Shown: piece by piece, positions 4,822-5,629 of the stretch
Layout of the letters: each line of letters opens with the position of its first letter
How positions within the stretch are numbered: the stretch's first letter is position 1
Virus record (IMG/VR): IMGVR_UViG_2660238352_000003
From: a virus
Taxonomy: Duplodnaviria; Heunggongvirae; Uroviricota; Caudoviricetes
Strand: one strand, 5' to 3'
DNA: 5,629 nucleotides
Notes under the pieces: model-generated
The model's database searches: none
The model's input: only the letters and a program-made list of their open reading frames with translations
What the model was told of the DNA's origin: nothing
Position numbers and translations under genes: made by a program

Positions 4822-5358
4822 ATGTCATTTATTAAAACTTTTTCCGGGAAGCATTTTTATTATGACAGGATAAATAAAGACGACATCGTGATTAACGATA
4901 TCGCGGTTTCCCTTTCAAATATCTGTCGCTTTGCAGGACATCTTTCACACTTCTACAGCGTCGCCCAACATGCGGTGCTTTGCAGCCAGCTGGTACCGCA
5001 GGAATTTGCTTTTGAAGCGTTAATGCATGATGCAACAGAAGCGTATTGCCAGGACATCCCAGCTCCACTGAAACGCCTTCTTCCTGACTATAAACGGATG
5101 GAAGAAAAAATAGACGCCGTAATCCGTGAGAAATACGGGTTACCTCCTGTTATGAGCACGCCTGTGAAATATGCCGATCTCATTATGCTGGCAACCGAAC
5201 GTCGCGATCTCGGGCTTGATGATGGCTCTTTCTGGCCTGTACTGGAAGGTATCCCGGCGACAGAGATGTTCAAAGTTATTCCACTGTCACCAGGCCATGC
5301 CTACGGGATGTTTATGGAACGTTTTAACGAGTTATCGGAGTTACGCACATGCGCATGA
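4822..5358 (+). CDS. yfdR: HD-domain 5'-deoxynucleotidase, YfdR-like (178 aa)
   Basis: ORF track frame 4759..5358. The internal ATG at 4822 is preceded by GGAG (4812-4815) and gives MSFIKTFSGKHFYYD..., 178 aa, matching recalled K-12 YfdR. HD-domain signature residues are present (GHLSHF..., ALMHDATEAY, downstream Asp residues). Confidence 0.8.
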   Translation: MSFIKTFSGKHFYYDRINKDDIVINDIAVSLSNICRFAGHLSHFYSVAQHAVLCSQLVPQEFAFEALMHDATEAYCQDIPAPLKRLLPDYKRMEEKIDAVIREKYGLPPVMSTPVKYADLIMLATERRDLGLDDGSFWPVLEGIPATEMFKVIPLSPGHAYGMFMERFNELSELRTCA

Positions 5359-5397
5359 GTCTTTCAACTGAACAACCGCTGGAGGGGTAGCAATGAG

Positions 5398-5629
5398 GTA
5401 AGCGACTCGTCAGAACCGTATTGATATTTACTGAGAGCTCAGATCAACTTTCCAGGGCAACAGATCGCGTACCCGGTTTGCCGGCCAGTCCTGGATATGT
5501 TCAATGACGTAACGCAGCCACTTTTCTGGCTCCACATTGTTCAGACGGCATGTGCCGATCAGCGAGTACAACACCGCCGCATGTTCACCACCGCTGTCGG
5601 AACCCGCGAACATCCAGTTTTTCCGGCCT
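5398..5629 (-). mobile_element. IS66-family insertion sequence, terminal part (element continues beyond the window end)
   Basis: The plus strand reads GTAAGCG at 5398-5404, the characteristic IS66-family terminus as I recall it. It lies 30 bp beyond the stop of a minus-strand ORF whose product matches the conserved C-terminus of IS66 transposases. The exact boundary is not verified. Confidence 0.7.
5428..5629 (-). CDS. IS66-family transposase, C-terminal fragment (N-terminus outside the window)
   Basis: ORF track 5428..5613 (-); the frame stays open upstream to the window edge (...GRKNW before MFAGSDSGGEHAAVLYSLIGTCRLNNVEPEKWLRYVIEHIQDWPANRVRDLLPWKV). The motif FAGSDSGGE...YSLIGT...LLPW is the conserved IS66 transposase C-terminus. 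Confidence 0.85.
   Translation of the reverse strand, partial: GRKNWMFAGSDSGGEHAAVLYSLIGTCRLNNVEPEKWLRYVIEHIQDWPANRVRDLLPWKVDLSSQ

Follow-up and report, generated by a model that had tools for sequence, protein, structure and literature searches.

The window, that is, the whole stretch of DNA analysed in this study (5,629 nucleotides), carries DNA of a lambdoid prophage of the yfdP-yfdQ-yfdR type, and near its right end the early-left operon of this prophage, read on the plus strand, meets an IS66-family element. Related loci are designated below by L numbers. The features around the junction are as follows.

4822-5358, plus strand: yfdR (5'-deoxynucleotidase, 178 aa), the last intact gene before the IS, with its TGA at 5356-5358; assigned by translation and by its annotation as yfdR in homologous RefSeq loci.
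5349-5390, plus strand: a 13-codon stub, MRMSLSTEQPLEG and a stop codon, which overlaps the yfdR stop and starts like K-12 yfdS (MRM...); assigned by comparison of the sequence with the yfdR/yfdS overlap of K-12.
5381-5387, plus strand: Shine-Dalgarno-like GGAGGGG, 5 nt 5' of the ATG of the xis-like gene; read from the sequence, the motif being kept in related loci.
5390-5397, no strand: GCAATGAG, the 8 bp adjoining the IS end, which would be the target-site duplication if the insertion was canonical, judging from the duplications of four complete copies.
5393-5397, plus strand: ATGAG, the first 5 nt of a gene for a 64-aa protein of an excisionase family, the remainder of which is displaced by the IS; assigned from the uninterrupted site in relatives.
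5398-5629, minus strand: the terminal 232 bp, at the tnpC-downstream end, of an ISCro1-family IS66 element; 100% match to L003.
About 5398-5421: an imperfect terminal inverted repeat, which starts GTAAGCGACTCG, its terminus being set by four complete copies.
5428-5629, minus strand: the C-terminal 66 codons and the stop codon of TnpC (IS66 transposase), the gene running off the window; assigned by translation, PF13817 and NF033517.

In the window, the repressor, cro, rha, yfdP, yfdQ and yfdR do not differ from their counterparts in intact relatives. The YfdR protein is identical in many uninterrupted prophages, and an exact-protein look-up gave uninterrupted relatives only. The Rha/ASH-domain gene (window 286-1434, minus strand) is one 382-aa ORF here and likewise in L008, L010 and L014. 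The gene calls of L007 and L013 split it into a 296-aa piece and a 59-aa (DUF4222) piece, despite very few base differences from the window.

The plus strand of the segment 5340-5629 reads ...GAGTTACGCACATGCGCATGAGTCTTTCAACTGAACAACCGCTGGAGGGGTAGCAATGAG|GTAAGCGACTCGTCAGAACCG... across the junction. When the window was compared by BLAST with the fetched loci, the junction fell exactly at 5397|5398. On its left side, the uninterrupted prophages L014 and L007 aligned without a gap to window 94-5397 with 99.96% identity (two mismatches over 5304 bases, at window positions 106 and 160), and on its right side L003 3501-3732 showed 100% identity to window 5398-5629. The insertion point lies 39 bp past the yfdR stop and 5 nt inside the next gene. 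Because four complete copies of the element share the same start and the BLAST alignments break at the same base, the IS terminus is exactly 5398 and is the tnpC-downstream end. A few BLAST matches extend some bases to the left of 5398, an overrun that we ascribe to chance likeness of the flanks, for example of CAACTGAG to GCAATGAG.

The initial annotation, made from the sequence alone, had placed GGAGGGG at 5381-5387, the ATG at 5393 and GTAAGCG at 5398, with the stop codon of a minus-strand ORF 30 bp inside GTAAGCG. All of these coordinates agree with the sequence (ATG at 5393-5395, GTAAGCG at 5398-5404, stop codon at 5428-5430), and the IS terminus that it had put at 5398 is upheld by the comparison with uninterrupted prophages and with the four complete copies. 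It had also described an IS66-family element lying directly after yfdR and opposite to the yfdP-yfdQ-yfdR operon, and both the transposase domain and the BLAST break confirm this description.

The TnpC fragment is translated from the minus strand as GRKNWMFAGSDSGGEHAAVLYSLIGTCRLNNVEPEKWLRYVIEHIQDWPANRVRDLLPWKVDLSSQ followed by a stop codon. It matches Pfam PF13817 (DDE_Tnp_IS66_C) with an E-value of 2.4e-17 and a score of 63.3 against a curated cut-off of 30, and it covers positions 343-386 of the 387 of the NCBIfam profile transpos_IS66 (NF033517), that is, the last 44 positions, an agreement well outside what chance would give; this assignment to IS66 is made on the last 66 residues of TnpC, which are those in the window. 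The locus identical to the visible end, L003, is a copy in E. coli E2865 that is annotated as "IS66-like element ISCro1 family", with the transposase WP_000381395.1. The element is thus an ISCro1-type IS66 element, a type common in E. coli, and up to 27 places per E. coli genome match a query spanning the IS end.

Four complete ISCro1-family copies with unrelated flanks were compared (L003, L020, L021 and L022), and each is 2699 bp long. They lie in a phage S49 peptidase gene, after papC, in a copB-like gene and on a plasmid. All four start GTAAGCGACTCGTCAG and end GGTTTAAATGAGCCGGTTAC, and all four are flanked by 8-bp direct repeats (ACATAAAA, GAAATAAA, GTCAATGG and CAACTGAG). In complete copies whose end is identical to that of the window, the other terminus is GTAACCGGCTCA, the two termini agree at 17 of the first 24 positions, and the genes are laid out as tnpA-tnpB-tnpC. 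The inverted repeat of the window begins with GTAA at 5398. The minus strand carries the tnp genes, and the element therefore opposes the early-left operon of the phage. The duplicated targets GTCAATGG and CAACTGAG are similar to each other and to GCAATGAG, the putative duplication of the window; a weak target preference is possible, five sites being too few to judge.

We then consider the gene that the element has entered. The uninterrupted site in relatives reads ...GGAGGGGTAGCAATGAG|CAACTTAATG..., and the prophages that match the window through 5397 continue as ...GGAGGGGTAGCAATGAG|CAACTTAATGACAACAAAACAAGTC..., which opens a 64-codon ORF. Its translation in the relatives is MSNLMTTKQVAEFCGVSISTVLRWNSVNRRTGQKYRPDFPDPDIKSCPNKWASRKIYRFAGVIE, starting MSNLMTTKQVAEF... 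The gene has the following positions in three of the relatives.

L001, 3694-3888: the 64-aa xis-like gene.
L008, about 10572-10766: the same gene.
L014, about 7208-7402: the same gene.

The ORF is intact in 44 of the 45 loci that carry it, and 5-8 nt before its ATG the 45 related loci retain a GGAGG-type motif, even where the preceding gene is a different one. Since both the reading frame and the motif are conserved, the ATG at 5393 marks the genuine start of a gene. The proposal that this ATG, with GGAGGGG as its ribosome-binding site, starts the next gene of the operon is therefore borne out by the 64-codon ORF of the uninterrupted relatives.

Over its full length, the 64-aa protein matches PHROG 1553, "excisionase", with an E-value of 3.8e-34. 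Against the Pfam and NCBIfam profiles its scores are weak and below the cut-offs: 20.9 versus 27 for HTH_17, 20.3 versus 60 for Xis_Gifsy_1 and 17 versus 28.8 for TIGR01764 (excise). The match to a MerR profile is likewise weak and below the cut-off. Twenty homologues are named in the databases only as "DNA-binding protein". Some homologue entries of 92 aa are extended at the N-terminus, and we considered whether these are fusions of IS and xis; this was rejected, because the extensions are the end of yfdR in another frame. The 64-aa protein has an N-terminal helix-turn-helix, and the fold predicted in a structure model of an 86%-identical homologue (pLDDT 80) is closest to MerR-type winged-helix proteins. 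The best Foldseek matches of this model were BldC, RacA, MtaN, the excisionase RdfS (TM 0.65) and Pukovnik Xis, with non-significant E-values of at least 0.15.

The position of the gene was also compared. In eight related loci (L007, L008, L010 and L012-L016), the 64-aa ORF is placed between yfdR and a convergent 377-aa gene, followed by a 411-aa tyrosine integrase gene, and beyond the convergent integrase lie the host genes for a HAD hydrolase, an acetyltransferase and the psi subunit of DNA polymerase III. In the relatives, no further plus-strand gene of the operon comes after the xis-like gene. Because only the convergent 377-aa gene, the integrase gene and host DNA then follow, the gene beyond the IS that depends on the operon transcript is essentially xis alone. 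Searches of Pfam and PADLOC gave nothing for the 377-aa gene (L008 10976-12109, minus strand), which is an orphan cargo gene located at the end of the prophage. From the family label, the gene position and the non-significant fold match, we think it rather probable that the interrupted gene encodes the excisionase of the prophage.

The 64-aa gene is unannotated in two RefSeq records (L001 and L002) and uncalled in ten related contigs (L007-L016). That is, RefSeq annotation and gene callers usually miss the xis-like gene, and an automated comparison would call the present insertion intergenic.

The insertion is rare. The intact yfdR-xis arrangement is present in 77 of 5426 complete E. coli genomes, and the junction of the window is present in none of the 5426. 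No IS was found at that site in the 36 viral contigs that carry the xis sequence, all of them from genomes other than the source, and the exact junction was not found in a search of one genome per species and of metagenomes. Among viral contigs, the sole public match to the junction is IMGVR_UViG_2663762849_000006 (5378 bp, equal to window 211-5588), which we read as the source itself, an isolate genome in IMG. Judging from the sequence, the event looks recent and strain-specific, because both partners are essentially identical to uninterrupted prophages and to other IS copies, respectively.

Taken together, we consider it highly likely that a recent, simple insertion of an ISCro1-type element took place at the start of the xis-like gene of a lambdoid prophage, and that the prophage excises poorly as a result. 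The proposed course of events is as follows. A 2.7-kb ISCro1-type IS66 element would have transposed recently into a prophage of the yfdP-yfdQ-yfdR type, with the break after ATGAG, that is, one codon and two bases into the xis-like gene. If the transposition was canonical for IS66, GCAATGAG (5390-5397) would be duplicated at the far IS end. The far junction is then predicted to read ...CCGGTTAC GCAATGAG CAACTTAATG..., in which the IS end GGTTTAAATGAGCCGGTTAC is followed by GCAATGAG and then by CAACTTAATGACA. The far side, ...CCGGTTAC GCA ATG AGC AAC..., would accordingly hold a complete xis coding sequence, without GGAGG in front of it. Between this far copy of xis and both its ribosome-binding site and the yfdP-yfdQ-yfdR transcript would lie 2.7 kb of IS in antisense orientation. 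The initial annotation had proposed that the gene is cut off after about two codons. The IS does enter the gene after 5 nt; what had been called a truncation would more precisely be a disconnection of the gene from its ribosome-binding site and promoter.

By this course of events, the excisionase would be lost or strongly reduced, and the prophage would keep its repressor, integrase and early genes and yet excise poorly. In lambda-type systems, recombination directionality factors are required for excisive recombination, and for this reason a poorly excising prophage is the likely phenotype. Antiterminated early transcripts could still give some residual read-through into xis. An earlier suggestion that the IS might bring outward promoters or terminators found no support: consensus scans for promoters and terminators over the visible IS end and one complete copy gave nothing above the expectation from shuffled sequence.

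The far side of the element has to be considered with the way in which the window ends. Only 232 bp of the IS fall within the window, and the other IS end lies beyond it. A look-up with the TnpC fragment showed that, in at least six unrelated assemblies, draft contigs likewise break off 231-233 bp inside this IS end. Since unrelated contigs stop at the same IS position, the right end of the window is a break of the kind usual in assemblies, and the window itself is probably one complete short contig.

The far side could differ from the prediction. Instead of a simple insertion, the junction could derive from a deletion or inversion mediated by the IS, or from recombination between two IS copies; xis, the 377-aa gene and the integrase gene would then be lost or lie apart, without a target duplication. 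The predicted far junction (CCGGTTAC, GCAATGAG and CAACTTAATG in succession) gave no hit in scans of viral, genome and metagenome collections, as such a rearrangement would have it, although what the lack of hits mainly indicates is that these collections do not include the source genome. The numerous ISCro1-family copies in E. coli, at up to 27 places per genome, are substrates for recombination, and the same 5.6-kb stretch contains a second abnormal junction, of rlmD to the prophage interior at 93|94. On the other hand, every one of the four complete copies is a simple insertion with an 8-bp duplication, and on the prophage side the 99.96% identity to intact relatives extends all the way to the IS. 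We therefore regard a rearrangement at the IS as unlikely.

The second junction is at the left end. Window 1-93 is a stub of rlmD on the minus strand, made up of its initial 30 codons (ATG at 88-90) and 3 bp upstream of them, and it is 100% identical to E. coli chromosomes. At 93|94 it meets prophage DNA without microhomology, and the breakpoint falls in the final codons of a 74-aa gene that lies downstream of rha. When the minus strand is read, rlmD comes directly after the early-right genes of the phage. The junction of rlmD and prophage was found in no complete E. coli genome searched. Either a chimeric end of the contig or a genuine rearrangement may account for it, and its presence makes rearrangement or faulty assembly in this genome more likely a priori. 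The two mismatches with L014 and L007, at 106 and 160, are the only ones, and each is no more than 70 bp away from the rlmD junction, which hints at a segment from a different prophage copy or at an assembly problem.

If the stretch were a real rearranged fragment, the minus-strand early-right operon (cro, the CP76-like gene, rha and the 74-aa gene) would be joined 3 bp upstream of the rlmD start. In that case, an SOS-inducible phage promoter would read into rlmD-relA, and the IS at the other end would disable excision and so fix the arrangement. We think this quite improbable, because a 93-bp stub of a unique gene at an apparent contig end fits a chimeric or minor-variant assembly path better than a rearrangement.

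The same stub bears on whether the IS junction is itself an assembly chimera and the real prophage is uninterrupted. In favour of this, the window has the look of a short contig from a draft assembly, it stops on the right at a recurrent contig end inside the IS, and the rlmD stub at its left end is suspicious. However, the switch from prophage to IS falls on the exact first base of a canonical IS terminus, as it does in a real transposition and almost never would in a random chimera, and we give this explanation very little credence.

The initial annotation had taken the next gene for yfdS, the gene after yfdR in K-12. The K-12 yfdS begins ATGCGCATGAATGTTTTC, overlapping the yfdR stop, and encodes a protein that starts MRMNVFEMEG... 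The window retains ATGCGCATGA as in K-12 yfdS, then diverges and closes after 13 codons (5349-5390), so that it reads MRMSLSTEQPLEG and then stops. The similarity to prophages of the yfdS type ends at 5358-5364. By sequence comparison, the 13-codon stub marks a mosaic recombination joint between yfdS-type prophages and the lineage of the window. Truncation of yfdS by the IS, which would agree with the yfdP-yfdQ-yfdR order shared with CPS-53 of K-12, can be practically dismissed, because K-12 yfdS starts ATGCGCATGAATG inside the yfdR stop, where the window has the stub only, the ORF that starts with the ATG at 5393 codes for another protein, one that matches an excisionase family, and the near-identical uninterrupted prophages are without yfdS.

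A simple insertion at the start of the xis-like gene is a known kind of event caused by a known element, and it is ordinary biology with little import beyond the strain. The decay or domestication of prophages by IS insertions that disable excision or regulation is a familiar route. If the prophage carries traits of interest, it is probably immobile in this strain.

Finally, we compared the locus with known systems. In CPS-53 (KplE1) of E. coli K-12, yfdP, yfdQ and yfdR stand in the same order and are about 96% identical to window 3422-5358. After yfdR, CPS-53 continues with yfdS, yfdT, ypdJ and the recombination directionality factor TorI (order yfdP-yfdQ-yfdR-yfdS-yfdT-torI). In contrast, the lineage of the window has, after yfdR, a different, excisionase-like gene of 64 aa, then the convergent orphan gene and the integrase gene.

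The 64-aa protein can be compared with the MerR-like winged-helix excisionases, namely RdfS, Pukovnik Xis and Gifsy-1 Xis. Like them, it is a small protein whose gene is beside that of an integrase, and the fold predicted for it may be of the winged-helix type. In sequence it resembles characterised excisionases weakly, with scores under the curated cut-offs, and its role as an excisionase is a predicted one.

The element itself agrees with the ISCro1-family copy of E. coli E2865 in all of the visible 232 bp, in the terminus GTAAGCGACTCG and in the C-terminus of TnpC. As judged on this visible end, the copy in the window differs from ISCro1-family copies elsewhere in its insertion site only. 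In E. coli ST131, an ISCro1 insertion upstream of afaA lowered both the transcription of afaA and the promoter activity, instead of supplying a promoter (PMC8764528). That is, the same-named element sits between promoter and gene there, and downstream transcription is reduced (PMC8764528). The afaA case differs from the present one in that it concerns a fimbrial regulatory region and an element given as 2,824 bp (PMC8764528), whereas the effect in the prophage of the window is a predicted one.
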